The notes under the pieces were generated by a model. The model ran no database searches. It was not told where the DNA came from and saw only the letters and a list, made by a program, of their open reading frames with translations. Shown here piece after piece: positions 8,210-64,000 of a stretch of 64,000 bases of DNA. Numbering within the stretch: position 1 is the stretch's first letter; each line of letters starts with the position of its first letter. The position numbers were made by a program, and so were the translations under genes. Source of the stretch: Craspedostauros australis (Eukaryota); assembly GCA_030167865.1 (NCBI GenBank), contig JALAGF010006261.1, forward strand, positions 1 to 64,000, read 5' to 3'.

Positions 8210-8211
8210 CT

Positions 8212-8258
8212 TTGCTGTTGCTTGTGTTGCTGTTGCTTGTGTTGCTGTTGCTTGTGTT
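8212..8258. repeat. 15-bp tandem repeat (about 3 copies, TGCTGTTGCTTGTGT) immediately upstream of the PP2C start codon
   Basis: Directly visible; it translates as QATAT x3 in the extended ORF. Confidence 0.8.
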
Positions 8259-8582
8259 GATTGTAGTGGTGCCTGTGCTGGTGCTGTTCGATGGGTTCCG
8301 TGAGTTGCGGAGGAGGCGTCGATGACTGTGGCGACTTGGGTCCCTTGAATGCGATTGTCCGTGGAGAGTATGAACAGCTGGATCAATCAAGCAAGGCCCT
8401 CTGAGGTCCTCCAAGTGAGAGATCGAAGCTGTCCGAGGATCGTCTGGAGTACTTGAGATACGAGGAAGAGTGGCAAGAGCGACACGGAAGCGATGTGGTG
8501 CTGCTTTTGGTGATGTTCTGTTGGACGATGTGAGGAAGGAAGGATGTTGTGTAGTGTGTTGGTGCAGCCTCGTATAATACTT

Positions 8583-44473: not shown

Positions 44474-45638
44474 CTACAACTTCTTACCAATGATACGCAG
44501 ACGTCTGTAATCTGTCACCCATCGCTCTCCATCGTACATGCTCGGCTTGAGCTTCTCATCGACGAAATCCAGCATGCGCTCGATCTCCTCAGGCGACTGG
44601 TCATGCCAAAATGCCTCGCCGAACATGCGGATCCAATTGCGCATGCCATCCGCGCCCGAATTCAAAGGCGTGGGGCGGTCGAAGAGGACGGCGTTCGTGA
44701 CCTCGATGCCATGCTTCTCGAGCAAGCTGGTGTACTGCGCGATGCTGGGGAAGTACCAAGGCGATGCGGAGGCGGGCTTCTTCAAGTACTCCAGCATGGC
44801 TGTGACGATGCCATCGACGTTGCCCTTGCCACCCATCTCGATAACGAATCGTCCGCCAGGTTTCAAGGCTTTGGACATGGCTTTGACGGCACCTTCAGGG
44901 TCGCTGACCCAGTGCAAGGCGGCGTTTGAGAAGATGGCATCGACAGGACCACGCTCGGGACCTAGATCGAACTCCTGCGCGAAGGCTTGGAAGTAGTGCA
45001 GGTTCGGAAACTGCTTTTGCGCCTTTTCGACCATGTTAGGATCGGCATCGAATCCCATGGCGGTGGCACCACGATCTGCGATGGCCTTGACCAATTCGCC
45101 TGTGCCGCAGCCGACATCGAGGATGGTCTCACCTGGTTGAGGATCGAGGACGTCGATCAACGATGATCCAAACTCCCAAACGAAGTTGTACTGGTCAACG
45201 TACTCCTCGGCGTTCCACTGCGATGTGTTTGGATGTTGACAATCACATAATAACCAACAAAAGAGGAGTGTAGGGTAGAGCAGGATAGATGATTGGATAC
45301 ATGCTATTTGTGAGACAGTGATGGGCATGTGGTGTGCAAGATACAACATGTGCGATGATAGTTGCGTTGATGTTAATGTTCTTGTCCAGTTGTAGCCAAG
45401 TAGAAGAACAGATCAACGAGCAAGCAGCACGCTGCCTCACCTCTTGGGTCGCCGTGGCTTGATCACCTCCTCCTTCGTTGGTTGCCATGGCAGATGCCTC
45501 ACACTGCGTTGTTCCTTGAGGACACGACGACGATACTGATGCTGATGGTGGGATCGGTTTCGCAAAGCCAAGTGCCACGGAAGTGCTTGCAGCAAGAAAG
45601 AGAAGGGCCGGAACGTTGCAGAATCTATGGGCGGTCAT
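44474..45638 (-). CDS. Class I SAM-dependent methyltransferase (Tam/trans-aconitate methyltransferase-like) with signal/plastid-type presequence; 313 aa, exons 45638-45441 and 45217-44474
   Basis: ETILDVGCGTGEL, GFDADPNMV, DAIFSNAALHWV, LKPGGRFVIEMGGKGN, WYFPS, DYRRLRI. Exon 1 MTAHRFCNVPALLFLAASTSVALG-FAKP. GTGAGG donor 45440 and TCGCAG acceptor 45218 give ..TQE|WNAEEY.. Confidence 0.88.
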
Positions 45639-48242: not shown

Positions 48243-51200
48243 CTACGTGTTTCCACAGTTCATGTCCGAGTACAGACGTTTGACGTGATTGGCCCAGTGT
48301 CGCAGACCGGTAGCGTGGGTCTTTGTCTCGTGCTCCAGCTGGTCCAATGCATCGGCTCGCAGTATCTCAGCCTGTTCCAGTGCCATGGCCAGCTTGATAA
48401 TATCCTGCTTCATCTGCGCCATCAGCTCGCGGTCGTTGCCATCGTGGAGGGCGACCTCGGCCGACAGCTCCTCGTTCTGGGATCGGAGTTGTTCAAATTC
48501 GGTGGCCAGCGTGTACAGATCGCTGTCCTTCTTACCGATCTCCTCTTCGACCTCCCTCAATTGCTGCTCCATGCCCGCCACCTGCGATTGCAGCAGCTTC
48601 ATCTGCTCATCTCTCTCCGAGACAGCATCGTGCGCGGCGGTCAACTCGCGACGCACGCCGGACTCCCTCGTGCTGGACTCCGACTCGGCGATCGCCTTCT
48701 GATGCATGAGATCGACAATCTTGCTCTCCAACACGCGCATTTGCTCCATCGCCTGACTCTTGCTCTCCTCCAGTGCGTTGCGATCGGCGACGCGCTCCTT
48801 CGTAGTGCACAGCTCGTCCTGCAATGCAGTCAAGTGCTGCTGAAGCGAGGTGTTGTCCTGCTGCATCGCTGCCAGTGTGCTCTCCTTCTGCCGGAGTTCG
48901 GACTTCAATGCTTGCAGACCCTCCTCGATCTCGTCTCTTCTCTTGGAGTCAAAGTCCATCTGGAGGTCGAACAGCGAGGATTCAGTTTCCGACAACTTGA
49001 ATTTCGTCGCTTCCAGATCGTTCCTTGACGATTCGCAGAGGACTTCGAGCTCGCGGATCCTCGCTCGTCCCATCTCGGCAGCTGCTGTCATATCATTGAT
49101 GGTATGGTGCAACGCATCAATCGTCTCCGCACCGCCTTGCGATCCTCGCATGACGTTGCTGAGCTGGGTCTGCAGATCCAGGATGGCCGCATCCTTCTGC
49201 TCCACCGCAGCCTGCTGGTCCGCCAAGCTGCGTTCCAGAAACCCAATGCGATTCTGCAAATCGCTGGTCCGACCCATCTGCGTGTTCTGGTTCTGGAGTT
49301 GTGCTGTGGCCTGATCGAGCTGTCGTGACAACGACGCGTAGCGATCCTCAAGAGCCTGGCGTTCACTGGCCAATCTCTGCATCTCTGCAACCATCTGATT
49401 CTCGCTTGCAACCTTGCCCTCCTCGAGGTCGGCAAGGTCTCGTCGGAGACCTTCAACGGTGCCATCCAATGTTGCTTGTGACTGTCCCACGTGCTTGAAT
49501 TGCATGCGCAGCTCGTTGCACTCTTGAGTTGCCTGTTCGAGTTCTGCCTGCAGCCCCAAGTTGGCCTGACGAAGAGCCTCCACTTCTTCGTCAGGAACCG
49601 TACCGCCGGGATGCGTCTCAGCCTTGGCATGCTCCAACTCGATGATCGCAGCATTCCTCTCCTCGATTTCGTGCTGCAGCTCGATGATGTGCTGTTCACC
49701 AGCATCCATCTGCTCCTTGAGCATTCCAAACTGCACCAGCATCTCTTCGCTCTCAGCCTGTAGAGCCTCGTTGTCTCTGTCGGCCTGTTCCTTGGCGTCG
49801 GCCAATCCTTGCGCTTCGACTTGCAACGCTTCAAGGTGCGATCTTGTCTCCTCCAGGGCGGCAGCAAGGCTGCCTTCGTCGTTGCCCCTATTCTGCAATG
49901 CTTCTTTTGCCTGTGCCAAGCGTTGTTGCAGTTCCTGCTTCTCCTCTTGCAGAGCGGTGATGGAAGAGTTCCACTTTTCGCCATCTTGCTGCAATTGTGC
50001 AATAGCGCGTTGCTTCTCTTCGATGACCACCTGATTTTGCGCCATCGATCCCCGCAAGGTGGCAATGCTTTGCTTCGCCTCATCCAGGCTTTTGGCGAGG
50101 TTATCCTTCTGCTTCATAGCATCTTGCGTCGCCTTTGTCTCGTTGTGGAGCTTCTGCTCCAGGGCAACGAACCCACCGATTCTCGCGTTGGCTGCTCGCA
50201 ATTGTCCCTCCAAGTCCACGCATCTCTTGGAGAGAGTCTCGATTTCAACCTGACTGGTCGAACCAACCTTGCTATTCGTTTCCAACTCACGTGACACCCG
50301 CTCAAGTTCCTGCTGCAAGTTCATCATCTTCGTCTCATCATTTGTCGCCAGCTGCCTCGCCCGTTCCGCAGCCTCCTCCAACGTCGCGCAACGCCTCTTG
50401 ATGTCTGCGATTGCGTTCTTCGCACCATCACGTTCTTTCGTGATGGCGGCACGTTGGTTGGTCAAAGCCCCAATATGAAGATCCTTTGCGGATGATGCCT
50501 TGCGCAGGCTCTCTGCTTGCTTCCGAAGCGACTCGGCCTCACGCTTGGAGCTTTCCAGCATGCTGCCCATCTTCATCAGCTCCTTGTTCTGATTTTCCAG
50601 ATGCCCAATCATGTCACGCGATACCGAGAGTTCCGTGCGCAATGTGTCTCGTTCCTGCGACACAGATCTCAGCTCGATATAGATGGAACCAAGCTTCTGG
50701 CCATCTGCCTCAACGCTTGACAGCTTCGAACGAACTTCAGCGTTTTGAGTCTCCAGGGCCTTGCATTTGCCTTCCAGGGTCTCGATTTGCTGCGTTGCTC
50801 CCATGAGCTTCGCTTCCATGGCCTGGATTGCTTGTGCGTGAGATTGCTTGATACTTACAATCTCCTTCTCCAGTTGTTCCTTTGCAGCACGCGCCGTTTG
50901 CTCTGCGGTCCGAATCGTGGAAATCCGCTTCTTAGCTTCGTTTGTCGTCACCTTCTTCGCCTCGAGCAGCTCAATGATGCGCGCCTTGTCCTTCGTGGAC
51001 TGAGAATGGAGCTTTGCGACAGTCTGAGCATGCTGCTTTGCGACAGTCGCTGTATCTCTCTTGTTCTGGACCACCTCGGCCTGGCTGAGCGCCAGCTTCC
51101 TCTGTGACTCATCAAGATGGACCTTGATCTCTGCATGCTGCGCGTCCTTGGTGGTCAACGTCGCCCGCAGGCTCTGCAGCTGGATCTTCACCTGCTCTTC

Positions 51201-54200
51201 GGAAGTCACCTGCATCATCGCGTCGTTGAGAGAGGCCTTCAAGTTCTCAATCTCTGCGGTCTGGCCATTTTGGCGTGCTCGGAAGTCCGAGATCATGTTG
51301 TCCTTGTTCGTAATCTCCTGCTGATGCCGCATCATCTCGGATTGCAGTTCCTGGTGCTTGGCTTCGACGGAAGAAAGTTCCGATTGGAGCTCCGAGGTCT
51401 TTGCGGACAGATCAATGTTCGTATCCTGCAAAGACTTCATCTCAGCCTCAATCCTCTGAAGATCCTGCGCGTACAGCTGGGAATTTGCCACAGCCTGCTT
51501 CTTCGCGCTCTCAACTTCGGAAAAGAGTTCCTTTCCGCTCGCTTCCAGTGCGCCTTTCTCTGCCACCCATGCGAGTTCCGACTTTGCCTTCTGCTCAAGC
51601 TCGTGACGTAGCTCGCCATTGACCTTCTCAAGATCTGCAACCATCGTTTCGAAGTTCTTCAGCTGTTCGACAGATCGCTTGGTTGAAGTTTGAAGGCTGG
51701 CGAGCTCTTCGTCATGAGATCCCTGCTTCGATTCCATGTTGGTCTTGGACTTCTTGAGCGCATCGTTTGACGATCGCAAAATCTGGACCTCCTTCTCGAG
51801 CAGTTGGCGCTTCAATATCTCCTGCTGCAGAAGCTTCTCAAAGTCGATTTGTACATCTCCGTTCGGCGTCTTCAACTTTCCCACAAGCTTGTCCTCTCCG
51901 GCGTTCATAGCGATTAGGCTTTTCACGCAGGGACATCCTGTATCAAAGTTGTTCGGGCAACCCGGACAGGCTGGATCAATGGTGCTTGTGGTTGTGGTTG
52001 GATTGATAGAGGAAGACGATCCTTGAGTTTTGGGCGTCAGACCCAGTTCGGCATCGTTCAAGAGGTTTGTGTCAAGGCTGTATCTCCCCTTGGGCGTGGA
52101 TGGTGGCGTGTCATCCTGATCCATAACAATGCTGCCATTCCAGCCGCTGCCTTGTGTGTTGTTGGGATCGTAGTACCTTGTTGTGTTCAAAGATACGTCG
52201 CCCATTTCGGCATCGTAGAATTCGCCCTCGTCGGACAGTGATGGGCCCATGCCGTGGCTTGTCGCCACCACGGCATCATTCTCGCTGAGGCTGTCCATCC
52301 ACTTGACGGAGAGATTCCTCTCGTCAGTGGAGTGATCCGTGGCACGCCCAACGAGCGAGTTGGCATGCACGGACGTATCGGTTGGCATGCCATCGTCGGA
52401 ACCACCTCCGCCGATGGAGTCATCATCGACCTCCGACACGGTTGCGAGTGCATCGACGGTGGATCCACCTCGTGACGGGGCGAGCGACGATCGAGACGAT
52501 TGCATGGGAAGATGATCGACGACGGGTCCGAATTCGTCCTCTTCGACATCTTCAGTGTCCTTGCTCGTGTCTGCTGTTGAGAGTTGCGCTGCCACGGAGT
52601 CCAGTGTTCGCGGTCTGCGCACCGTTGGATCTGCAGCTGGTTTCCTGTCCTCCTCCTGCACCGGTGGAGCAACCGGTTCGGTTGCAGGAGCCTGAGGGTC
52701 GGGAACTGGCGTGTGATCGACGACTGGGCCGAATTCATCCTCCTTCTGGTCATCTGGTGGTAATGCCGACTTCTCGCCGACAGTTGCCATCTCGGACGAC
52801 GCATCTTGAGGGGGCTCCGGCACCTCAGTTTCTTCGGGCAAGTGATCCACGAGCTGTTCGCGATTCCTGTCCTCGTCATTGCCCGACTGCGGATTTGGGA
52901 CCTCGGTGATGATGTCCAAGTCGTCATGATCCCACGCGTTCGGTTCGTCCCCTCCTGAGGTCTCCACAGCATCGTCAAGATCATCGTCGACCATGGATGG
53001 TTGGGCGACGACGGTGGATCCGGCAGCAGAAGGCACCGCTGGCGGTCGAACGACGGGAGTCACATCAACGACAGGACCGAAGTTTTGCTCCTCCTGACCA
53101 AAGTCATCGACTTGGGACAGCATCTCAGAGGGATCGGCCACGACGTCCAGCGTGGAAGCGTCGGTTGCTCGCGATTCCGGACGTTGAGGCACATGATCAA
53201 CGAGATGAGGCATCTCGGGAGCTGAACGTGGCCCGGCATTCTCCAGTTCGGCTTCCTCATGTTCCCATCCTTCTTCTTGCTCCTGTTGCTGTGCGGATTG
53301 CGTACCGTCATTCAATGTAGACTCGTCCATCTCCTCGTCACGCTTGATTTCGGTGTTCACGGCAGACGTTGCAGTGGCTTGTCCGGTGGCGACGGAAGCC
53401 GCGGTCTTGTGTGATATGATTGGCGTGTGATCTACGACAGCGCCGAAGTTGTCATTTTCAATGATGCTGTCGGTCTTGTCTTCCTTCTTGCGTGCTGAGA
53501 CGACGGATGGATCCACGACGACGGCAACAGATGAATCTGTGGGAACGCTGTCCCTACGCGAGGGGATATGATCCACCACAGAGTCCTTCGCCTTTTCAAC
53601 AACACTGCCATCGACGGCATCGTCGCCATCGGTGGAGGTCGTAGTCGCAGGATGAGCTGGCGCATCCAGCTGCTCCAATGTGACTTCGTCATCCCAACCT
53701 TCCCCGATGGCAGTATCACCTCCGATCGTGGAGGTTCCAAACCACGTGCCATCCATGTCGTCTTCAGTCTTTGCTTCATTCCGAGCGCTGGCTGTGGCAC
53801 CTGCACCGAAGGTTGCCATTGACGTTGCGATTGAGCGGGAAGCGCTGCGTGGTGCGGGGGTAAGATCGACCATCTTTCCAAACCTGTCGCTCTTGACGTT
53901 CTCGTCATTGAAGCCATCGACTGTCGACGCCACATCCGCTGGATCAGCAATCACGATCGTCGACGCGTCCGCGCCACGCTTTCTTGGCGCGGTCTTCGGG
54001 ACATGGTCCACCAGATGGCTCTCTGCGAAAGTCGAGTTGAGCCCATCCGCGATCGCTGGTTCGTCCTCGGCTTCCCACACAGACTCCACCACGCTCGCCA
54101 TGCCCGCCAATGTATTTTCTTCCATCTCGTCACTCTGGCGGATGTCTGCATCAAGACCGGTTGCCTGCGGCGCCATGGAGGCTGCGACTGAATGCGCCAC

Positions 54201-57200
54201 AGAACGGTTGTCGATCGGGGTTTGATCCACAACGGGGCCAAAATTAGTGATCGTATCTCCGGCAATTGTATCTGGATTGTTCGTGGACGCATCGCATGGA
54301 TTCAAGGCCAGCACGGAGCCATCTTGTTCCTTCGTCTTGACCTCTGGAACGTGGTCCACCAGAGTCTCTTCCTTCTTTCCCGTTGGGGCGCTTGACCCCG
54401 TGTCCGTCCCCGTCTCAGCATTGCTGTTGCTCCAAGCGCCGTTCGCCCGTGCGTCCATGCCGGTGCTTTCAACTTCATCAATGACGGTTTCCAGCTCCTC
54501 ATCCAGCTTCCAATCTCCGTGCAATCCTGTAAGCTGAGTGACAACCGAGGTTGCCACCGAGTAGGTGGACAGTCTGGCGGCGCTGGGAGCGATCACGCCA
54601 GGCGTGTGATCGACAATCGGGCCGAAGCCGCTTGGGACCGTGTCATCGTCGTCGCCCACGTTATCGTCATTTTGGCTGGAGGCATGAGACGCGCCAGCGA
54701 GAGTAAATGTGGAGGCATCTGCTCGCTTCGCTGTCTTGGTGTCTCCTCTCGGGACGTGGTCGACGAGATGATTCTCTTCCACCATCGAGAGCTTGATGGT
54801 GCCCACCACGCTCCTGTTCTCGCCATCAAGGTCCAAGGTTCCGCCGAAACCTGTTACTTGCGTGGAGTCGTCGTGGCTGAAGTCGTCCATGTCGTTGTTT
54901 TGCCGGATGTCTTCATCGACGTCTGTAATGTCGGCAAATCCCAGGACGGTGTCGTCCATGATCGATGCCGAAGTGTTGCCGACACTCGCCTTTTTCTTCG
55001 CCTGAGGCGTTTCGGGAGTGTGGTCGACCACCTTGCCGAAGTGGTTCTCTTGCGTGTCATCCATTCCATCGTTGGAGACGTCCAGCTCTTCCTCTGACGA
55101 CGAACCACCGATGGGGTCCACCGATGGGTTCACGGTGTGCCTTGGTTCGTTTTGCACGGGTGTGTGGTCGACGAGCGGAACTTTGAGAGGGACCAATGTA
55201 ACTGGCATCGACTCGGGATCATTTTCGTTGCTTTGTTCCGAAAGCCGTGACAAGACCGCGGGTGGAGACGATGCGCCGAACGGATACACTGTGGAATCTT
55301 CATGGAATGAGATGGTGTACGCGCTTCTTGGCTTGTGGTTGTTGTGCCTTGCCATGAACTCCTTCTTCTTGCTGCTGCCGCTGTCGCTTCCGTTGACGTT
55401 TTTGGAATGTGGGGAGTCCGGTGCATCTTCCTCACCTTCGCTGATGGAGTTCAAGGATTCCCCGATCGAGGCGCCGCCCATGGCAGCCCACGATGACTCG
55501 TAGGCAGAACCGCGGACGATGCGCGCGGTCGGTGCTGGTGTGTGATCGACCACCTTGCGCGCACCCGATGCCGATCGCAGCGCGGAGCGTCGCTGCTCCT
55601 TGTGGTAGCTTTCCTCGTCGATGGAATCCAACGTTTCGGCAACAGAAATATCTGCACCAAAGACGGCCATGGATGATGTCGACTCCATCCTTTCCTTGAT
55701 CGGTGGCGGCGGTGGCAGTGGGGTATGATCCACAAGCTTCGGTGCTGATCCTGCGTCGCCGTTTGATTCCAGTTGGATGGAAGCATCGAGATTCCCGAGC
55801 GTATCGTCGTCGTCTGCCCACACGCTCTCGATGCATGAGGCAACCGCGTCGTTGGTTGCATCCGTTTGCCGTGCAGCGGTTGGAGTTGGTGGTGGAGGCG
55901 GCGGTGGTGTGTGATCCACCAAGGGAATTTGCGCGACATCGTCGGCGAGATCGTTGAGAATTGTGTCGTGCTCGCCGCCCCAGGCATTGTCGTCCTGCTT
56001 GAGCACTGTCTCTGACATGCCTTCCTGCGAAGGGTTTTGCCCTGAAGACGATGCAGACGCATCGATACGCTCATCCGTCAAGGCGTCATCGAATTCGTTG
56101 AGGTCGATGTCGTCGTCATCGCCCCATCCGCTGTCTGGTGCCATGGCGTCGCTGGTCTCCATTCGTTTCAGCGTGCGCCTTTCTGGTGTTCTGTCGACAA
56201 CATTGGCTTGGGTCTTCATTGTCGTCGCGATGGGCGAGCCACTTTGGGAGACAGCCGCCGAGTCGTCCCCGAAGATGGACGATGACGCTGAGGCCACTGC
56301 GCTGCTCGTCGTCTGTCGTTGGTAGAGGGTCTGCGGTGGCGGCGGGGGTGGTGTTTGATCAATCATCGATACGCCTGTGCCGTTCGCAGGGGGTTGACGT
56401 CCCTGCATCGCATCTTGGAACAGTTCATCGTCGGCAGCTCCCACGTCAACTTCCAGGTTTCTTGCGGGTGCATGGCCGATGACGCCCGTGTTGACATTGC
56501 CGTTGGTGTTGGCACTGGTATCGCCGATGTCTTTGCCAGCATTGTCAATGTCGGTATCGCCAACGATGTTGTCCAAATCGTCGAGGCCGTCGTTGTCCCA
56601 TCCCGAAGCGTCGCTGGATTGGCGCGCAACAGCAGCTGTGGAGAGTGCAGTTGCGCCCAGCGAAGTGGCTGTGCTTGTGACAGATACTTCACGGTTGGAT
56701 GCGAATCGAGGAGGTGGCCGCGGCAATGGGGTGTGATCAACGACGTTCGTCAAGCCCTGTTTGATCTCCGCTTCATCCACGTCCGCGTCCGTGTCCACAT
56801 CATCCATGTCATTCCATCCGTTGCTTGGCGACAAAGCTTGGTTGGCAGTGTCCAGTGCCGCTGCATCCACCTGAGTTTGAGTCACATCGTTGAGCGGCAC
56901 CACAGAGTCGGGTTTTCGATGAGTTGGTCCCGACTGCTCCTGGGCCCTGGGGGTGTCAGGGAGTCCTTCGAGATCTAGATCGTCGTCCCATCCAGACTCC
57001 ATCAACTCCGAGCTTGTTGGGTCTGCAGCGAGACTGGATGGCACTTGCGCTGCTGCCGTTTGCGCACCAAATGTGAAGGCAGGCGTCTGTGTGGGCGCGG
57101 GTGCGGCAACTGGCACAGGTGTTGATGCAGCGGCTGTTCCGTTGGCGTCCTCGTCGAGCAGACCATCGAGACCGTCGTCATCATCGCCCCAGCCATTGTC

Positions 57201-57848
57201 GTCATTCCCATTGTCAATTGCATCATCCTTCTGCGCATTGGTGACATGGTCGACCTGCTTGGTGGAGAGAGGAGTGCCGTTGGCAACAGGATGACCGCCA
57301 TTCATGCGAGCACCCACAGCAGCATGCCCTTCGTTGTCCTTGTCCTTGTCATCGTGATCGTCATGGTCATCGAGTCCCAGGCTGTCGTCATCGCCCCATC
57401 CTTCTGCATCTCCGGCATCTGTCACTGGGTCCACTTGTGGCTGCGCGGCCTGCTCCAGAAGACTTGCTACCCGTCCCATGAGGGAGCCATCACGATTTGG
57501 AATGCTCCCCATGTTCAGCGCGCCGAAACCAAAGCCTGCAGCAGGTCGTGGTGGTGGCGGCGGTGGAGGCCGCGGCGGTGGGGCACCAAAGAGCGTGTGC
57601 GCTGTGACGTTGGATACACCAGCAGAGAACGCATTGGTGGTTGCGTTTGCGTTTGTGCCGACCGCATTGTTGCCACCGCCTTTGTTGTGGTCATCATCAT
57701 CATTGTCATCATCATTGTCATCGAAGGAGACGTCCCCAAAGTCATCATCGTCGCCCCAGCCGTCCTGCATGTCTCCATCGTCGAAGTCGTTGCCGCTGAC
57801 GCCGATGTTGGCATTGCTGGAGCCGTTCGATAGGCCAAAGAAGCTCAT
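48243..57848 (-). CDS. Giant intronless protein (3201 aa): acidic disordered N-terminal ~2000 aa with VDHxP and GW-acidic repeats, short Cys cluster, then ~1200 aa of coiled coil (golgin/tether-like architecture)
   Basis: 9.6-kb stop-free ORF starting ATG AGC TTC (MSFFG). Repeated motifs are visible in the translation, and the C-terminal third is E/K/Q/L heptad-rich. Confidence 0.88.
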   Translation of the reverse strand: MSFFGLSNGSSNANIGVSGNDFDDGDMQDGWGDDDDFGDVSFDDNDDDNDDDDHNKGGGNNAVGTNANATTNAFSAGVSNVTAHTLFGAPPPRPPPPPPPRPAAGFGFGALNMGSIPNRDGSLMGRVASLLEQAAQPQVDPVTDAGDAEGWGDDDSLGLDDHDDHDDKDKDNEGHAAVGARMNGGHPVANGTPLSTKQVDHVTNAQKDDAIDNGNDDNGWGDDDDGLDGLLDEDANGTAAASTPVPVAAPAPTQTPAFTFGAQTAAAQVPSSLAADPTSSELMESGWDDDLDLEGLPDTPRAQEQSGPTHRKPDSVVPLNDVTQTQVDAAALDTANQALSPSNGWNDMDDVDTDADVDEAEIKQGLTNVVDHTPLPRPPPRFASNREVSVTSTATSLGATALSTAAVARQSSDASGWDNDGLDDLDNIVGDTDIDNAGKDIGDTSANTNGNVNTGVIGHAPARNLEVDVGAADDELFQDAMQGRQPPANGTGVSMIDQTPPPPPPQTLYQRQTTSSAVASASSSIFGDDSAAVSQSGSPIATTMKTQANVVDRTPERRTLKRMETSDAMAPDSGWGDDDDIDLNEFDDALTDERIDASASSSGQNPSQEGMSETVLKQDDNAWGGEHDTILNDLADDVAQIPLVDHTPPPPPPPTPTAARQTDATNDAVASCIESVWADDDDTLGNLDASIQLESNGDAGSAPKLVDHTPLPPPPPIKERMESTSSMAVFGADISVAETLDSIDEESYHKEQRRSALRSASGARKVVDHTPAPTARIVRGSAYESSWAAMGGASIGESLNSISEGEEDAPDSPHSKNVNGSDSGSSKKKEFMARHNNHKPRSAYTISFHEDSTVYPFGASSPPAVLSRLSEQSNENDPESMPVTLVPLKVPLVDHTPVQNEPRHTVNPSVDPIGGSSSEEELDVSNDGMDDTQENHFGKVVDHTPETPQAKKKASVGNTSASIMDDTVLGFADITDVDEDIRQNNDMDDFSHDDSTQVTGFGGTLDLDGENRSVVGTIKLSMVEENHLVDHVPRGDTKTAKRADASTFTLAGASHASSQNDDNVGDDDDTVPSGFGPIVDHTPGVIAPSAARLSTYSVATSVVTQLTGLHGDWKLDEELETVIDEVESTGMDARANGAWSNSNAETGTDTGSSAPTGKKEETLVDHVPEVKTKEQDGSVLALNPCDASTNNPDTIAGDTITNFGPVVDQTPIDNRSVAHSVAASMAPQATGLDADIRQSDEMEENTLAGMASVVESVWEAEDEPAIADGLNSTFAESHLVDHVPKTAPRKRGADASTIVIADPADVASTVDGFNDENVKSDRFGKMVDLTPAPRSASRSIATSMATFGAGATASARNEAKTEDDMDGTWFGTSTIGGDTAIGEGWDDEVTLEQLDAPAHPATTTSTDGDDAVDGSVVEKAKDSVVDHIPSRRDSVPTDSSVAVVVDPSVVSARKKEDKTDSIIENDNFGAVVDHTPIISHKTAASVATGQATATSAVNTEIKRDEEMDESTLNDGTQSAQQQEQEEGWEHEEAELENAGPRSAPEMPHLVDHVPQRPESRATDASTLDVVADPSEMLSQVDDFGQEEQNFGPVVDVTPVVRPPAVPSAAGSTVVAQPSMVDDDLDDAVETSGGDEPNAWDHDDLDIITEVPNPQSGNDEDRNREQLVDHLPEETEVPEPPQDASSEMATVGEKSALPPDDQKEDEFGPVVDHTPVPDPQAPATEPVAPPVQEEDRKPAADPTVRRPRTLDSVAAQLSTADTSKDTEDVEEDEFGPVVDHLPMQSSRSSLAPSRGGSTVDALATVSEVDDDSIGGGGSDDGMPTDTSVHANSLVGRATDHSTDERNLSVKWMDSLSENDAVVATSHGMGPSLSDEGEFYDAEMGDVSLNTTRYYDPNNTQGSGWNGSIVMDQDDTPPSTPKGRYSLDTNLLNDAELGLTPKTQGSSSSINPTTTTSTIDPACPGCPNNFDTGCPCVKSLIAMNAGEDKLVGKLKTPNGDVQIDFEKLLQQEILKRQLLEKEVQILRSSNDALKKSKTNMESKQGSHDEELASLQTSTKRSVEQLKNFETMVADLEKVNGELRHELEQKAKSELAWVAEKGALEASGKELFSEVESAKKQAVANSQLYAQDLQRIEAEMKSLQDTNIDLSAKTSELQSELSSVEAKHQELQSEMMRHQQEITNKDNMISDFRARQNGQTAEIENLKASLNDAMMQVTSEEQVKIQLQSLRATLTTKDAQHAEIKVHLDESQRKLALSQAEVVQNKRDTATVAKQHAQTVAKLHSQSTKDKARIIELLEAKKVTTNEAKKRISTIRTAEQTARAAKEQLEKEIVSIKQSHAQAIQAMEAKLMGATQQIETLEGKCKALETQNAEVRSKLSSVEADGQKLGSIYIELRSVSQERDTLRTELSVSRDMIGHLENQNKELMKMGSMLESSKREAESLRKQAESLRKASSAKDLHIGALTNQRAAITKERDGAKNAIADIKRRCATLEEAAERARQLATNDETKMMNLQQELERVSRELETNSKVGSTSQVEIETLSKRCVDLEGQLRAANARIGGFVALEQKLHNETKATQDAMKQKDNLAKSLDEAKQSIATLRGSMAQNQVVIEEKQRAIAQLQQDGEKWNSSITALQEEKQELQQRLAQAKEALQNRGNDEGSLAAALEETRSHLEALQVEAQGLADAKEQADRDNEALQAESEEMLVQFGMLKEQMDAGEQHIIELQHEIEERNAAIIELEHAKAETHPGGTVPDEEVEALRQANLGLQAELEQATQECNELRMQFKHVGQSQATLDGTVEGLRRDLADLEEGKVASENQMVAEMQRLASERQALEDRYASLSRQLDQATAQLQNQNTQMGRTSDLQNRIGFLERSLADQQAAVEQKDAAILDLQTQLSNVMRGSQGGAETIDALHHTINDMTAAAEMGRARIRELEVLCESSRNDLEATKFKLSETESSLFDLQMDFDSKRRDEIEEGLQALKSELRQKESTLAAMQQDNTSLQQHLTALQDELCTTKERVADRNALEESKSQAMEQMRVLESKIVDLMHQKAIAESESSTRESGVRRELTAAHDAVSERDEQMKLLQSQVAGMEQQLREVEEEIGKKDSDLYTLATEFEQLRSQNEELSAEVALHDGNDRELMAQMKQDIIKLAMALEQAEILRADALDQLEHETKTHATGLRHWANHVKRLYSDMNCGNT

Positions 57849-58600: not shown

Positions 58601-61600
58601 TCAAGTTTGTTCTGCTGCCGTTGTTGCTGCTTGTTCGTGCTGACGAGTCTTGCGCGAAGAGGAGCGTCGGTTCGACGGCGACAGCATGCGGCGCGTGCCT
58701 GCGGATCTCTGCGCATCTTCGGTGCCGTCGCTCTGCCGTGCGACGCTAGGGTTCTTGCGCAAACTCGAGGAGCTGTCGCCATTGCGCGTGCCGCGGCTGC
58801 GTCGTTCCACGCTGCTCGTCTTTCCCGCCAATGAACGAGTCGAGATGCGTCGGTTCTGCCGTCTCTGCACCAGTTCCGGGCTCATCGGCGATAGCATTCC
58901 GCTGTTGTGGAATGAAGAACTCGATTCAGGCGGGGAGTCTCGGTGTGCTTTGCCATTTGGCGTGCCTATCGCCGCGATATTCTTGCGGCCCCTCGAGGTG
59001 CTCGGTGTGCGTTCGAAGTTTCGGTTTGATGTCGAGCCTTGTTGCATCGGTGAGGGTGATATCGGTGCGTCCAAGGGCAGAGAATCGTTGCTCGATGCCG
59101 AGCGTGATCTGCCGGATTTCGAACGAGAGGTGGATCTGGAACGATGCGATCGGCGTCCAGCGCGATGAGGCTTGCGGCGACGGACGCGGCTAGATGAGTT
59201 CTGTGACGATGGTGATAGCGACAGCCGCCCGCTTTCGTTCCAGTCGTTTGGGAGATCAATGCGAGCCCGCCGGCCGCTTCGAGACGAGCTGCTCATGCTG
59301 CCGAAGCTGCTGTTGAAGGAGGTTTGGGATTGCTGGTTGTCACACATGTTCTGCATTCGCGGCTTGCCATGCTCGTAGCTGTCTGATCCATCCCTCAAGG
59401 GCATCGTGCCGAGCATGTCCAACGATGACGGATTGAACGAGTAGTCGCCATCGCATGTTGATTCGTTTTTGTTGGCGGATCTGGTGCCGTTGCCATTCAT
59501 CTGCGGGCGGGATAGTCCTGGGCTGGGCAGATGGTTGCGGTTGCCGAATGGCTTTATCTGCAAATCCTTGCCAGGACTTGATGGACTGTCCCACCGAGAC
59601 TGCAGCTGTACCATGCGCTTCGATGGTACCGGCGCAGTTTGTGGTGCATCAGTCGCGGATGCACTCGATCGAACTTTGCGACGTGGCTTTGGTGTTGCAG
59701 ATGCTGGCTGTTTCTTGGGTTTTGGTGTTGACGATGACGAGGGCGCTCGCTTCGAGCGTCCCACCGAGGACGAGCGAGATCTCTTGCCGGCAGGCCTGTT
59801 GGGCGATTTGAAATCAAGAACCGGCGCAGAGGCTGACATGGCCTCCTTTTCCTTCCTTCGGGACGATGACGACGATGACGGTTGCCGCTTGCCTGATGAT
59901 GGGGTTGCTGGGAATGGAACTTGAGGACGTTCCTTGGAATGGTCATCCTGAGGGCGATGCGGAGACTTCGGTGTTGCTTTCGGTGACCTCTGCCTCGATA
60001 CTTTCCGCTTGGAAGTTGTCGACGCTGTCAACTGGAATGGATCCCAGTCTTGCTTAGTCGCACTTCCATGCTTCTGCGACGGCGTACCAGGCACTGACGG
60101 TGTCCGCTTGGAAGATGCACTTGTCGAACGCCGAGACTTGGATGACTTGCTTTGTGCTGGTGAGGGCGGGGACAGAGATGGCGGCGAGGACGTCGACGAT
60201 GATGATGGAGTCGATTTTGGAGAATACTTCGCTGGCTTCATTCTCGATGGGTCGAACTGCAACGGGCTGTCCGGCGTGCTCCTCGACTGCCTGTTATACA
60301 GCTCATCCAAGTACGCTTGGGTGCTGTGTTGAGAATCATCGACAGTTGGGATCCTGCCGAGGCGAGCACCTGGAGATGACTTCGATTTTTCATTCTTTAC
60401 TCGTATTGAAGCGTCCTCGTCAAATGAGAATGACGGTGGCTTGACGACGCTCGTGCTTGCTCCGTCGGCCTTCTTTACATTCGAGCGCGCAGGCTTCCTC
60501 CTTTGAACTACATACGAGGCGTCTTCTGCAGAATCATCCGAAGTACTGGGAGCACTCTTTAGCTGCGGGCTGGTATCATTGGCATGGTGCTTCAATATCC
60601 CGTTCACCTTGTTGGGATCTTCAAAATCGCAACTGAAGGCTTCCGTTCCGTCACCAATTCCCATGCTGTCCTGATCGGAATCGTACGATGCGTCCGACGC
60701 AAGGCTCTGATTCATATGGTACGACGGTTCCCTCTTCTTTCGTCGATGCAGAGGCAGGCTTGCCGTACGGGCCGGTTTTGACTTTTTCTTGGGCGGTGTC
60801 TTCTGCAATTTTTTCGGTGTGCTGCTGTGTGCTGGTGCGGGTGGCGGGCTCTGCGATACTGGCGGTCCTTTCGACATGTCGACCAACTCCTGCTCGCTCT
60901 TGCTCGCAGCGTTCGAGTTTCGCCTGGATTTCGAGGAGAGGAGTTTGGGGAAGCCTGGCGACCAGCTGGTGGAGCGTCCCGGCGTGCTTGGCTTCTTGAT
61001 GCTCTTGTGGCTGACAACACCCGCGCTTCCGTTGTGGCTGAATTTCCCGCTTTTGTTGTTCTTGGAACTGGAGGGCAGCATCAATGGCGCATCGTCATCC
61101 ATCTCGCTGGCGTGCGATGACTCGCCCATGCGAAGGCCGGGGCCGGAATACGGACCCCGATCGTCTTTGCCCGAATTGTGCAGTCCGTCGTTGATGGAAT
61201 CGCCTCTACTGCGATTGCCGTCCAATCCGGAGCTGCTGTTCAGATGTCCACCGCGCCGATCAGCGTCGAGGATGGAGTCAAACTCCATGCTGGCATTTCC
61301 CTTCTCCAGGTCCTGTTCCTCGTCATCCGTCGAGTCCGGCTGCGGGATCTGCTCCTGCCTGCCATGATTCCGCCCACGATGGTGTCCAAAATCGTCGGTG
61401 CCGCGGTTGGATGCCTCATTTCCAATCTCGTTCGGGAACAATGGATGAGCTTCGAGTGTTGTGATGAATGTGCAATATGCCAGATGGATGACGGAGAGCA
61501 GAATCCAAATAAGCAGCCCGAGGTACAGTGGCAGCGACAGATCTGTCTTTGCCATGGCATCCAAGATGCCGTTGGGCTGGACCATGAACGGGATCGCCAT

Positions 61601-62473
61601 CAACAGACCGACACCAATGAGGATGCGTCCGATCCACTCCTGCGTACGTTCTTTTCTGTACTTCCGCTGCAACAGACTCGATAGAATGATGGAACTCTCC
61701 ATTGGGTGGATCGGAAGCATGAAATTCAGCAGGAGCAGCACTGCCTGCAATGCGACCGCACGCCGTGCCAGCGTCCCCACCCAATCGTAGTCATTGATGT
61801 AGAACGAATGCTCGAAATATTTGAGACCGGCCGAAACGAAGAGCACGAACAGCCAGAAGATCAGTTGGCATAGCCACGCGAGTGATCCGTACGCTATTGG
61901 TAGTAACATTTCCTGCGTCGTTCGTCTTGGGGCTGTTGTCGGCGTTGGCGTCGTCATTGCAGCTGTGTCCATGTCGGCGTTTGTGTCTGCGATTGCCAGC
62001 GTTTTGGATTGAAATTTAGTGTCAGCGGCGATGTCAGTTTCTGATTCTGTCGCCAGCGCGAAGCCTTTATCTGTTGGTAACGATGTTGATGTTGACGTCG
62101 ATGCAGATACATTCGTCTGTCCCACGTCATTGGTGGCTGATGCTGACGCTGTCGCTATCGTTGCTGATGTATACGACATGGACATGGTTCCCAAAGGCCA
62201 CAGTATCATCTCCGTGCACTTGTGATCTCCACCATGATGATGATTGCCAAGGAGCTTGGCCAGGCCGTAGGAGAACATGGTGATCAAGAGGATTGGTCCG
62301 TACAATACAAACGCCATGGATGTGTATCCAGCGTCACTGTGATCCCTGCTGTATCTCGCGATCTCTACGACGAAGGGGATGAAGTAGGTTGCAGATAATC
62401 GCATGCTCGTTCCGCCGAACCATGTTCCCAGTGGCACGGCCGTATACCTCGGTGCCTTTGACAGCCATTCCAT
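58601..62473 (-). CDS. Membrane protein with degenerate peptidase M50 (site-2 protease)-like N-terminal domain and ~940-aa disordered S/P/R/K-rich tail
   Basis: 3.9-kb ORF, first ATG at 62473. The N-terminal ~350 aa follow the M50 layout (VPLGTWFG..MRL, LYGPILLIT.., ILWPLG, IAYGSL, LLNFMLPIHPMES), but the HExxH and NPDG motifs are substituted. Confidence 0.75.
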   Translation of the reverse strand: MEWLSKAPRYTAVPLGTWFGGTSMRLSATYFIPFVVEIARYSRDHSDAGYTSMAFVLYGPILLITMFSYGLAKLLGNHHHGGDHKCTEMILWPLGTMSMSYTSATIATASASATNDVGQTNVSASTSTSTSLPTDKGFALATESETDIAADTKFQSKTLAIADTNADMDTAAMTTPTPTTAPRRTTQEMLLPIAYGSLAWLCQLIFWLFVLFVSAGLKYFEHSFYINDYDWVGTLARRAVALQAVLLLLNFMLPIHPMESSIILSSLLQRKYRKERTQEWIGRILIGVGLLMAIPFMVQPNGILDAMAKTDLSLPLYLGLLIWILLSVIHLAYCTFITTLEAHPLFPNEIGNEASNRGTDDFGHHRGRNHGRQEQIPQPDSTDDEEQDLEKGNASMEFDSILDADRRGGHLNSSSGLDGNRSRGDSINDGLHNSGKDDRGPYSGPGLRMGESSHASEMDDDAPLMLPSSSKNNKSGKFSHNGSAGVVSHKSIKKPSTPGRSTSWSPGFPKLLSSKSRRNSNAASKSEQELVDMSKGPPVSQSPPPAPAHSSTPKKLQKTPPKKKSKPARTASLPLHRRKKREPSYHMNQSLASDASYDSDQDSMGIGDGTEAFSCDFEDPNKVNGILKHHANDTSPQLKSAPSTSDDSAEDASYVVQRRKPARSNVKKADGASTSVVKPPSFSFDEDASIRVKNEKSKSSPGARLGRIPTVDDSQHSTQAYLDELYNRQSRSTPDSPLQFDPSRMKPAKYSPKSTPSSSSTSSPPSLSPPSPAQSKSSKSRRSTSASSKRTPSVPGTPSQKHGSATKQDWDPFQLTASTTSKRKVSRQRSPKATPKSPHRPQDDHSKERPQVPFPATPSSGKRQPSSSSSSRRKEKEAMSASAPVLDFKSPNRPAGKRSRSSSVGRSKRAPSSSSTPKPKKQPASATPKPRRKVRSSASATDAPQTAPVPSKRMVQLQSRWDSPSSPGKDLQIKPFGNRNHLPSPGLSRPQMNGNGTRSANKNESTCDGDYSFNPSSLDMLGTMPLRDGSDSYEHGKPRMQNMCDNQQSQTSFNSSFGSMSSSSRSGRRARIDLPNDWNESGRLSLSPSSQNSSSRVRRRKPHRAGRRSHRSRSTSRSKSGRSRSASSNDSLPLDAPISPSPMQQGSTSNRNFERTPSTSRGRKNIAAIGTPNGKAHRDSPPESSSSFHNSGMLSPMSPELVQRRQNRRISTRSLAGKTSSVERRSRGTRNGDSSSSLRKNPSVARQSDGTEDAQRSAGTRRMLSPSNRRSSSRKTRQHEQAATTAAEQT

Positions 62474-64000
62474 GAGGTCCACATCCAATGCCCCTCCAGA
62501 GGAAAGTGAAGATGATGTTGACTTTGAGGGGTTCGTTGGCGTTCAATAAGGGGGTTCTAGTGCCTTTCTCTCTCCAGAGTGTGGGGATGTGTGGGTGCGC
62601 CTCCGGTGAACTGAACGTTCAATGTGACAGTTGTTGCGACAATTGTTGTGACAGTTGTTGGGTTGATGGAATCCTCTGCGCAGATGCGCTGTTCTGATCT
62701 TGATGCTGCTTCTCCTGTTGTGGATAGAGATTGGTGTCGATGACTCTCGTGGGTGATCTGTGCAATTCCTGCGCGGAGAGTGGGAAAACCAAAGATGCAA
62801 TGATGCGTGCGCTGGCTCCGATCAGATTGGGCTGCTTGGGTCTCTGCTGGCTTGCTATCGTCTGAGCGGAAGCGGCGGGCGGGTTGCGGATGTTTGTGCA
62901 CGTGAGAGAAGAAAGCAGATGGGTATGGGGGCTGGGGGCCACCCTCGATTTCGTTGTTGCCGACGCTGCTGTTGTTGATGATGTTCGTGCGTGTTGATGT
63001 TGCCTCTTGTCTCTGTCTCCCTATCTTTTGTCTTGACGCTGGGTTGGGCTGTCGCTGGCTGTCGCTCTTGCTTGCCTTGGTCCCTGCCCGAACACACGCA
63101 TGCAAACACGCCGAGAGAAAGACACGTGAGAAAGAGGAGGTCTTCTGTGGCCGGAAAGCAGAAGAAGGGAAGGGCACAACAAGATTGCTCAGTCTCCGGC
63201 TTTTGTCGTCGCCTCCCGCGCAAAACCGATCTCTCCACTGAAGCCGATGCGGAGAAGAAGTGCAAAACCAGCATCACTCCCAACAGTGCTTGCAAGCATG
63301 TCATCAACACTGCCATGAGTGATAAGAGGCAAACAGAGCGCCAAAACCGTGAGACATCGCTTCGCGTGAGGTGATACAATTTGGTGAATTTGTGATGGAT
63401 GCTAAAGTGTCTTGTTTTGCTTGTTATGTTGTTGCAAGACACCGAGACGTGATGGGCCCATAACAACTCGACTTGAGCAAGACACAGTTGTGACCTTCCT
63501 GTTGCCACTAATTAAACGGCCCTTGTGCCAAGAGGCTCTTAGTTGCATCGTTCGTGACACCAACCAAGACTTCACAAGTCACAATTTGGCTCGCCCATTT
63601 GTAATTTTATGCCTGTCTGCTGGTTTGTCGGCATCACAGGTCGTGCTTGTGCAGTACATGGCCTGTACATGGAGGGGACGCTGCAACCTCCTCGCCTCAC
63701 CCCACGCCAGAGCCTATTCCTCTCTCCGTATATCCACGGAAGAGAACATGGTGAGATCGTCGTGCACGCAAGCGTACCAATAGTGAAGACAGCACGCCAT
63801 CCAGCAACCAAAGTAGTTCACCTTGTTGATTCATCATCCTACGTTCCACACTTGTTCTGAACATCTTTGCAAAGCGTGATGCCATTCTGCCATTGCTCTT
63901 TGCATTTCTTTGAATTGGGTCATCTGTTGGTATTAGTCCTGTCGAGCACTCTACTCCACAGGTGATGGAGCTTCATTGCAACATCTCAACTGGTGGCCAA

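Follow-up and report, generated by a model that had tools for sequence, protein, structure and literature searches.

A 3201-residue diatom protein carries an array of VDHxP motifs, undescribed in the sources searched, that may serve in multivalent docking

What is the short motif that recurs along a 3201-amino-acid protein of Craspedostauros australis, and what is it kept for? The protein, P0001, is encoded in the 64,000-nucleotide stretch analyzed here (contig JALAGF010006261.1 of assembly GCA_030167865.1, positions 1 to 64,000 of the forward strand; hereafter the window). An initial annotation, made from the letters alone, had pointed to about 21 [VL]VDH[TVIL]P-like motifs between positions 52500 and 56750 of the window, organized into a higher-order unit, and had proposed that they form a multivalent docking scaffold belonging to no known family. 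The listing of open reading frames and the translation give P0001 as a single uninterrupted frame:

48243..57848, minus strand: whole open reading frame of P0001; N-terminal half acidic and predicted to be disordered, C-terminal half a coiled-coil rod

The loose pattern [VLIM][VI]Dx[TVIL]P matches P0001 exactly 21 times, between amino acids (aa) 369 and 1776, that is, from window position 56744 down to 52506, so that both the number and the range given at first are correct. The form VDH[TVIL]P accounts for 16 of the 21 copies, FGx precedes eight of them, and 14 contain T-P. These counts are far above those expected by chance: shuffling aa 1-1850 5000 times yields the loose pattern 0.08 times per shuffle on average and never more than twice, against 21 observed, and the VDH[TVIL]P form 0.009 times on average with a maximum of one, against 16 observed. 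When the 64-kb window is translated in six frames the loose motif occurs 22 times, 21 times in the P0001 frame and once elsewhere. The first 1850 residues contain 46 His, of which 16 lie within motif copies.

The copies are arranged as follows:

55536..56744, minus strand: six N-terminal copies (pattern match and translation)
56727-56744, 56349-56366 and 56184-56201, minus strand: N-terminal copies VVDHTP at aa 369, MIDQTP at aa 495 and VVDRTP at aa 550
55905-55922, 55719-55736 and 55536-55553, minus strand: N-terminal copies LVDHTP at aa 643, LVDHTP at aa 705 and VVDHTP at aa 766
52506..55175, minus strand: seven bipartite A/B units and one extra B copy (pattern match and unit alignment)
55158-55175, 54750-54767, 54345-54362 and 53997-54014, minus strand: A copies at aa 892, 1028, 1163 and 1279
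53562-53579, 53187-53204 and 52836-52853, minus strand: A copies at aa 1424, 1549 and 1666
55014-55031, 54600-54617, 54216-54233 and 53856-53873, minus strand: B copies at aa 940, 1078, 1206 and 1326
53421-53438, 53055-53072, 52707-52724 and 52506-52523, minus strand: B copies at aa 1471, 1593, 1709 and 1776, the last being the extra copy

Four of the six N-terminal copies run directly into prolines (LPRPPP after aa 369, PPPPP after aa 495, PPPPPP after aa 643 and LPPPPP after aa 705); the first three of these tails had been quoted in the initial annotation, and the one at aa 705 is a further case. A Ser/Ala patch and a GW-acidic motif likewise come after each of the six. From aa 892 onward the A and B copies alternate strictly in units of 116-145 aa. 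The A half-unit is mostly HLVDHVP followed by DAST..DP, and the B half-unit starts with FGxVVDHTP (FGPVVDHTP) and continues with SVATS, then an EEMDE-like patch, then a GW-acidic motif. The alternating unit, first described as about six repeats of 110-140 aa, comprises seven such pairs plus the extra B copy at aa 1776. Logos built from 1006 motif contexts in 68 long homologues reveal that the two halves share the core and a [S/D][V/A][S/A][S/T] patch about eight residues past the Pro, and that the full B form in the family is acidic-[FY]-G-P-[VI]-V-D-[HQL]-[TL]-P.

Tandem Repeats Finder detects no DNA array of matching period, only unrelated repeats with periods of up to 24 bases and no more than 8.3 copies. 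Together the 21 copies use all four codons for Val, Thr and Pro and both codons for Asp and His, and identical residues are encoded by the same codon in 348 of the 901 pairwise comparisons among copies. The lack of a matching DNA repeat and the scrambled synonymous codons argue that the repeat is held at the level of the protein while the DNA has diverged, as had been claimed at the outset.

A word-indexed search retrieved 51 relatives of 1760-5602 aa, HMMER with aa 881-1800 against 1.84 billion cluster representatives returned 61 at E<=0.001 (33 at <=1e-30), and a search among shorter proteins gave 22 relatives. The 52 proteins of the first homologue set carry 7-27 motif copies each; full-length proteins have 15-27, and some more distant homologues as few as nine. 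To quantify conservation we aligned 17 full-length orthologues, whose identity to P0001 is 30-54%. Of the 21 sites, 17 show no departure from V-D and 16 none from V-D-x-x-P, among them all 15 sites of the A/B region; the exceptions are the four most N-terminal copies, which are less conserved than the later ones, and the P at aa 771 (0.88). Mean identity to P0001 is 0.77 for motif residues, 0.36 for the other residues of aa 361-1800 and 0.27 for the rod. The initial annotation had staked its case in advance on orthologues keeping the motif, and in these 52 proteins and 17 aligned orthologues it is kept. Corresponding units compared across 16 orthologues have an identity of 0.45 (n=112), and the units of P0001 compared with each other one of 0.32 (n=21). 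The array is therefore older than the divergence of these species and has been positionally stable. Judged from sequence comparison, it is best described as an ancient tandem repeat, kept at the protein level, of a linear motif that is specific to the lineage and has the core hydrophobic-V-D-(H)-hydrophobic-P. The block DDDTPPSTPR near the array is also conserved, and the most conserved 12-mer of the whole protein lies just past it:

52434..52469, minus strand: GGSTVDALATVS, mean identity 0.98 across the 17 orthologues

Relatives that carry an organism name come from Cylindrotheca fusiformis, C. closterium, Nitzschia inconspicua, Seminavis robusta (where the homologue is auto-named 'kinesin K39'), Mayamaea pseudoterrestris, Amphora coffeaeformis, Grammatophora oceanica and a Bacillariaceae metagenome-assembled genome. 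In the NCBI taxonomy Grammatophora belongs to the Fragilariophyceae and Mayamaea to the Bacillariophyceae. All organism-named relatives are pennate diatoms, raphid and araphid, which agrees with the diatom origin guessed for the window at first; the statement covers the organism-named relatives, a minority of the matches. Metagenome contigs gave 46 pattern matches for related loci, none of them confirmed. No sequencing run, RNA or other, was listed for positions 52500-56750 of the window.

The array is found in a second architecture as well, shared by five proteins of 1292-1354 aa (P0092, P0094, P0095, P0054 and P0055). These begin with a coiled coil of about 170 aa, continue with 13-14 motifs in A/B alternation, and end in a basic, K-rich tail (..SVFGKLF..GTWA); they have neither the long rod nor the C-terminal box described below. 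Both forms are present in Cylindrotheca fusiformis, the short one as P0094 and the long one as P0012. The joining of the array module to two different frames argues that the module works as a unit in its own right.

The idea that selection acts on a short linear motif is correct insofar as conservation peaks on the motifs, and too narrow insofar as the conserved unit exceeds the 6-mer. Across orthologues the bipartite unit of about 125 aa has about six conserved blocks, several of them with alternating hydrophobics (AVVVDPSVV, SVATSMAT, TWFGAST); an alignment of two units shows as additional blocks DASTxVLVDP, SVATSMAT, DDMDGTWFGAST, DIKRDxEMDETTW and GWDQDEPELE. The spacers between blocks are long, highly acidic, and of variable length among orthologues. 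An alternative explanation is therefore a degenerate domain: the unit would fold, by itself or when bound, and the A and B motifs would be strands of a structural core. The number of blocks and their alternating hydrophobics are in its favor. However, the AlphaFold model of two units (aa 1273-1548, from a 17-sequence alignment) has a mean pLDDT (predicted local distance difference test) of 48.7, a predicted template modeling score (pTM) of 0.12, no residue at or above 70 and no strands; together with the nature of the spacers and the lack of a match among sequences in the Protein Data Bank (PDB; see below), this makes such a domain very unlikely. The model fits intrinsic disorder of the array region. 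The composition of aa 1-1850, with a net charge of -242, 13% Asp and 0.3% Tyr, is in accord with disorder.

The same properties raise the question of whether the acidic arm binds itself. Its VD(H)xP and SVATS blocks could be stickers that drive a condensate or an organelle matrix or brush, perhaps with cations. The short hydrophobic blocks are regularly spaced along a chain with a net charge of -242 over 1850 aa, the rod would pair the arms, and in the paralogue the array sits on a different, short coiled coil. Sticker repeats, however, rarely keep five exact positions invariant at 16 sites when the proteins share only 30-54% identity; a stereospecific pocket would better account for this precision, and we regard self-assembly through stickers as quite unlikely. 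The motifs might also be regulatory sites, with proline-directed phosphorylation at the T-P of VDHTP and possibly docking of a kinase or phosphatase. A Ser/Thr-rich patch follows each motif, 14 of the 21 copies offer T-P, and DDDTPPSTPR lies nearby. Against this, the A copies keep V-P, with V invariant at aa 1553 and conserved at 0.82-0.88 in the other V-bearing A copies. This indicates that the phospho-acceptor is not the constrained feature, whereas V, D and P are, and it leaves phosphorylation as the least probable of the alternatives considered.

Does the repeat correspond to a described family? It is undescribed in the sources searched, namely Pfam-A, PDB sequences and full texts (for InterPro the statement covers Pfam), in agreement with the first impression. 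Pfam-A has no above-threshold family in the array of P0001, and its three sub-threshold matches, all to coiled coils, lie at aa 2353-3015. Five homologues likewise gave only sub-threshold coiled-coil matches in Pfam-A, and there was no match in the array of two paralogues, P0094 and P0055, or in that of P0076, an araphid homologue. A sequence profile of two units retrieved only two PDB matches, both ribose-binding proteins at E 0.07-0.08, which we take as noise; the ESM Atlas, queried with aa 1020-1830, yielded no usable match. In 8.4 million full texts the strings VDHTP, VVDHTP, LVDHVP and FGPVVD led to one unrelated paper only, and among the papers listed for diatom golgins, diatom FFAT motifs and the Seminavis robusta kinesin K39 (none for the last) there was nothing on the VDHxP family.

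Several described motif classes were discounted, the invariant positions being at odds with them: LC8 TQT, the SUMO-interaction motif (VIDLT-like), the LC3-interacting region (with Gly-Pro in mid-motif), the clathrin box, calcineurin PxIxIT/LxVP, B56 LxxIxE, kinesin-light-chain W-acidic motifs, Argonaute GW hooks, and D-H metal sites. FG nucleoporin repeats are characterized by dense FG dipeptides, in tens of copies, one every 15-20 aa or so; the FGx[VIM]V copies of P0001, only eight in number and 67-145 aa apart, are far too sparse for this class.

A closer resemblance, already remarked on in the initial annotation, is that of the B half to ligands of the gamma-adaptin ear (GAE) of AP-1. The pattern FGx[VIM]V fits all eight B copies, whereas shuffled sequence yields it 0.05 times on average. 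Family-wide, F-G is present in 308 of the 1006 copies, with P at the next position in 83%, followed by [VI]-V, and with D/E enriched at positions -4 to -10. GAE-domain ligands include FGxLV in rabaptin-5 and DFGGF in p56 (2026 review, PMC13581114, excerpt); like the B copies, they have an aromatic-Gly-x-hydrophobic core in an acidic disordered setting. One could assume that the B copies are gamma-ear ligands and that the protein gathers or captures AP-1/clathrin carriers. However, four to five acidic residues among the six before the F are found only at aa 1706 and 1773; the other six B copies have one or two, and one has two basic residues. A strict gamma-ear pattern in the style of ELM matches P0001 three times, once at aa 34 outside the array. 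GAE ligands do not have the invariant V-D-(H)-x-P of the diatom motif, and 13 of the 21 diatom copies, namely the A and N-terminal ones, have no FG half; both facts would be left unexplained. We consider this explanation unlikely. The likeness of the acidic-FGPVV half to gamma-ear ligands makes AP-1 the first candidate partner.

The explanation we prefer is that P0001 is a multivalent docking platform. The invariance of V-D-x-x-P at 16 sites, in proteins that are otherwise about one-third identical, argues that a folded partner receives the motif in a stereospecific pocket; the many copies suggest avidity for a partner that is itself multivalent; and predicted disorder together with selection that peaks on the motifs fits a multivalent docking array. 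In this respect the docking scaffold proposed at first agrees with the data, the docking itself being something that we infer, and on balance we think it somewhat more probable than its alternatives taken together. In such a platform the long rod would bear a flexible polyanionic arm displaying many copies of one or two peptide ligands, and a multi-copy folded partner, either a vesicle coat or adaptor or an organelle surface array, would be held by avidity. An FFAT-like motif (a pair of phenylalanines set within an acidic tract) would hook the protein to VAP on the endoplasmic reticulum (ER). The features outside the array that bear on this proposal are:

57831..57848, minus strand: aromatic/hydrophobic N-terminal tip MSFFGL (coordinates checked)
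57438..57482, minus strand: early conserved block LMGRVASLLEQAAQP; family consensus GxGxFMGRLTxFxExVxxP (17-orthologue consensus)
52203..52223, minus strand: FFAT-like EFYDAEM, aa 1876-1882, with the acidic upstream flank SLSDEGE (sequence match)
51843..51968, minus strand: Cys4 head, aa 1961-2002, C-x2-C-x8-C-P-C, then a predicted short helix and beta-hairpin ahead of the rod
48399..51842, minus strand: coiled-coil rod of about 1150 aa (composition, sub-threshold coiled-coil Pfam matches, AlphaFold)
48246..48413, minus strand: C-terminal box ..LAMALEQAEILRADALDQLEHE..HVKRLYSDMNCGNT (alignment of C-termini)

A conventional FFAT motif consists of E1F2F3D4A5x6E7 and an acidic flank, and the Phospho-FFAT form has Ser/Thr at position 4 (PMC7705450, excerpt). 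EFYDAEM agrees with six of the seven core positions, having M at position 7, and a weaker second motif, TRYYDPN, lies about 12 aa downstream. The site is located in low-complexity sequence between the array and the Cys4 head. There, [FY][FY]D[ACST] is found in 25 of the 63 long homologues whose sequence extends far enough past the array, against a background of 0.005 per 350 aa, and the looser [FY][FY][DEST][ACSTP] in 45 of the 63, against 0.114 per 350 aa; some orthologues have FFSA or FFTA, the Phospho-FFAT form. By its sequence EFYDAEM falls within the definition of FFAT, and binding to VAP is a prediction from it. Like the FFAT motifs of proteins that bind VAP at ER contact sites, it has an acidic flank, and it is conserved in place in the P0001 family. 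It is a single motif beside the array; the array motif VVDHTP, in contrast, does not have an aromatic residue at position 2, and hence is no FFAT. Neither a signal peptide nor a membrane span is evident by eye in the P0001 translation.

The overall layout suggests, by resemblance, a golgin-like or contact-site tether with a partner in membrane traffic. Golgin-84, TMF and GMAP-210 share the N-terminal capture motif M-S-W-L/F (PMC5267433, excerpt), and Trp motifs of this kind are retained in orthologues of golgin-84 from across the eukaryotes (PMC5840792, excerpt). Like golgin tethers, the proteins of the P0001 family combine a long rod with a conserved C-terminus and a short N-terminal tip of aromatic character. 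Among 62 long homologues that start with Met, the tip is MW[STGE] in 26, M[NDSA][FW][FWL] in 15 and of another kind in 21 (relatives begin, for example, with MWSxL or MNFLL), so that 41 of the 62 recall the golgin motif; they are similar to it only. In contrast, a disordered acidic motif arm of 1850 aa is not a feature of golgins, and no sequence homology between golgins and P0001 was detected. P0001 can therefore be called a golgin-type tether on paper, and its membership among the golgins fails on the C-terminal targeting device, as neither a GRIP, GRAB or TMF family nor a membrane anchor was found.

As to the N-terminal end, an xMGRLT-like block is found within the first 400 aa of 26 of the 62 homologues. 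The tip and the FMGRLTxF-like block are candidates for membrane-binding or vesicle-binding elements.

Tryptophans in the arm offer a further comparison. There are 19 in aa 1-1930, ten of them after Gly and most beside an acidic run (e.g., GWGDDDD, SGWDDD). About 13 lie in G/S-W-acidic-run motifs between aa 31 and 1639 (window about 52930-57758, minus strand), EGWEHEE being a further example, and the Trp that are invariant across the 17 orthologues include W1258, W1369, W1385, W1528 and W1639. Aromatic residues stand side by side only in the invariant TWFG at aa 1368-1371; the closest two Trp are 16 aa apart, and most are much farther from each other. A di-Trp ligand of delta-COP has two Trp/Phe within acidic sequence, separated by a few residues. 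COPI is docked to the Dsl1 tether by Trp-based motifs that lie in acidic, unstructured stretches (PMC7145657 and PMC4868844, excerpts), and the ligand class of delta-COP is the di-Trp motif (PMC7145657, excerpt). The P0001 arm resembles the Dsl1 lasso in placing Trp within acidic unstructured sequence of a tether, but its Trp are single and widely spaced, unlike the di-Trp class of ELM.

Several observations weigh against a docking platform of the tether type. Pfam scans at E up to 1 find no GRIP, GRAB or TMF family, and no hydrophobic C-terminal anchor is recognizable by eye in the P0001 sequence. The tip of P0001 itself, MSFFGL, has no Trp, the Trp motifs of the arm are not of the di-Trp form named for delta-COP, and the gamma-ear match is good in only two of the eight B copies once the acidic flank is required. 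At the FFAT-like site many homologues have Pro at position 5 (YFDPE); in STARD3 it was position 5 that kept Asp at position 4 from binding (PMC7705450, excerpt). The AlphaFold alignment of the array is shallow (17 sequences), so that its low confidence is weak evidence for disorder. Finally, about six blocks per 125 aa exceed a classic short linear motif, and the unit might be a module that takes up its fold once bound or assembled.

If a docking platform is nevertheless the right description, a more specific scenario can be sketched. The motif (hydrophobic-V-D-H-hydrophobic-P, also in [FY]GP-prefixed form) would represent a new class of eukaryotic linear motif that is read by a folded domain, and P0001 would be a giant, VAP-anchored tether of pennate diatoms whose 21-valent arm captures coated carriers or organizes a pennate organelle, for example in positioning the silica deposition vesicle; the shorter paralogue would bring the array to a second site. 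We offer this full scenario as a speculation and regard it as doubtful. To our knowledge, very few trafficking or organelle-positioning scaffolds have been defined in diatom cell biology, and outside animals, yeast and plants hardly any lineage-specific linear motif is known. With its many copies, five invariant positions and occurrence in two architectures, the motif has an unusually clean signature, which makes its reader domain directly findable. A coat adaptor as the partner would mean a new coat-tether pairing, and any other partner a new pairing of motif and domain; the FFAT-like motif, the Cys4 head and the C-terminal box provide three further handles for locating the protein.

Of 68 long homologues, 49 have the Cys box of the head (aa 1961-1974), and in an alignment of 32 sequences C26, C29, C37, P38 and C39 (alignment numbering) are invariant. 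The AlphaFold model built from these 32 sequences has a mean pLDDT of 79.1; it shows a helix at 38-46, two strands (54-59 and 62-67) and then, beginning at 68, a long helix. A sequence profile of the head has no PDB matches at E up to 1, and Foldseek with the model finds no PDB match at E<=0.001. VIA-align returns single-helix matches only, for model residues 67-114 at Z of about 6, which barely probes the head itself. The Cys4 box could bind zinc or form a palmitoylation cluster. The sequence that follows is predicted to form a rod: aa 1991-3201 (1211 aa) contain three Pro and are rich in E, A, L and Q, and AlphaFold models the beginning of the rod as a long helix with pLDDT 95-99. The C-terminal box has the family consensus SLAxALExSExRRAxAIERLExERxANADSLRRLTESVKRFYSTL, where the end of P0001 reads HVKRLYSDM; the P0001 C-terminus (..HVKRLYSDMNCGNT) is a polar coiled-coil end. 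A3154, E3158, E3161, R3164, A3165, R3191 and Y3193 are invariant in the box. A search with it retrieved 24 proteins, apparently members of the VDHxP family or fragments of them, so that the box, with its ending (S/H)VKR(F/L)YS, occurs in this family only. The P0001 copy is the most divergent seen.

The content of the window is eukaryotic: it includes a fusion of PP2C with a cNMP-binding domain, as well as DWNN-RING, TerC and a phosphodiesterase. The genes noted near P0001 and elsewhere in the window are:

58601-62488, minus strand: adjacent upstream open reading frame of 1295 aa, with a hydrophobic multi-span N-terminal part and a basic, Ser/Pro-rich tail of about 900 aa; no Pfam family
44474-45349, minus strand: class I methyltransferase open reading frame, about 3 kb downstream of the P0001 gene
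33307-34587, minus strand: PDEase_I open reading frame
6074-8386, minus strand: open reading frame with PP2C phosphatase and cyclic-nucleotide-binding domains

The homologue P0018 has methyltransferase matches in its precomputed Pfam annotation, which suggests a fused gene model and a conserved neighborhood.

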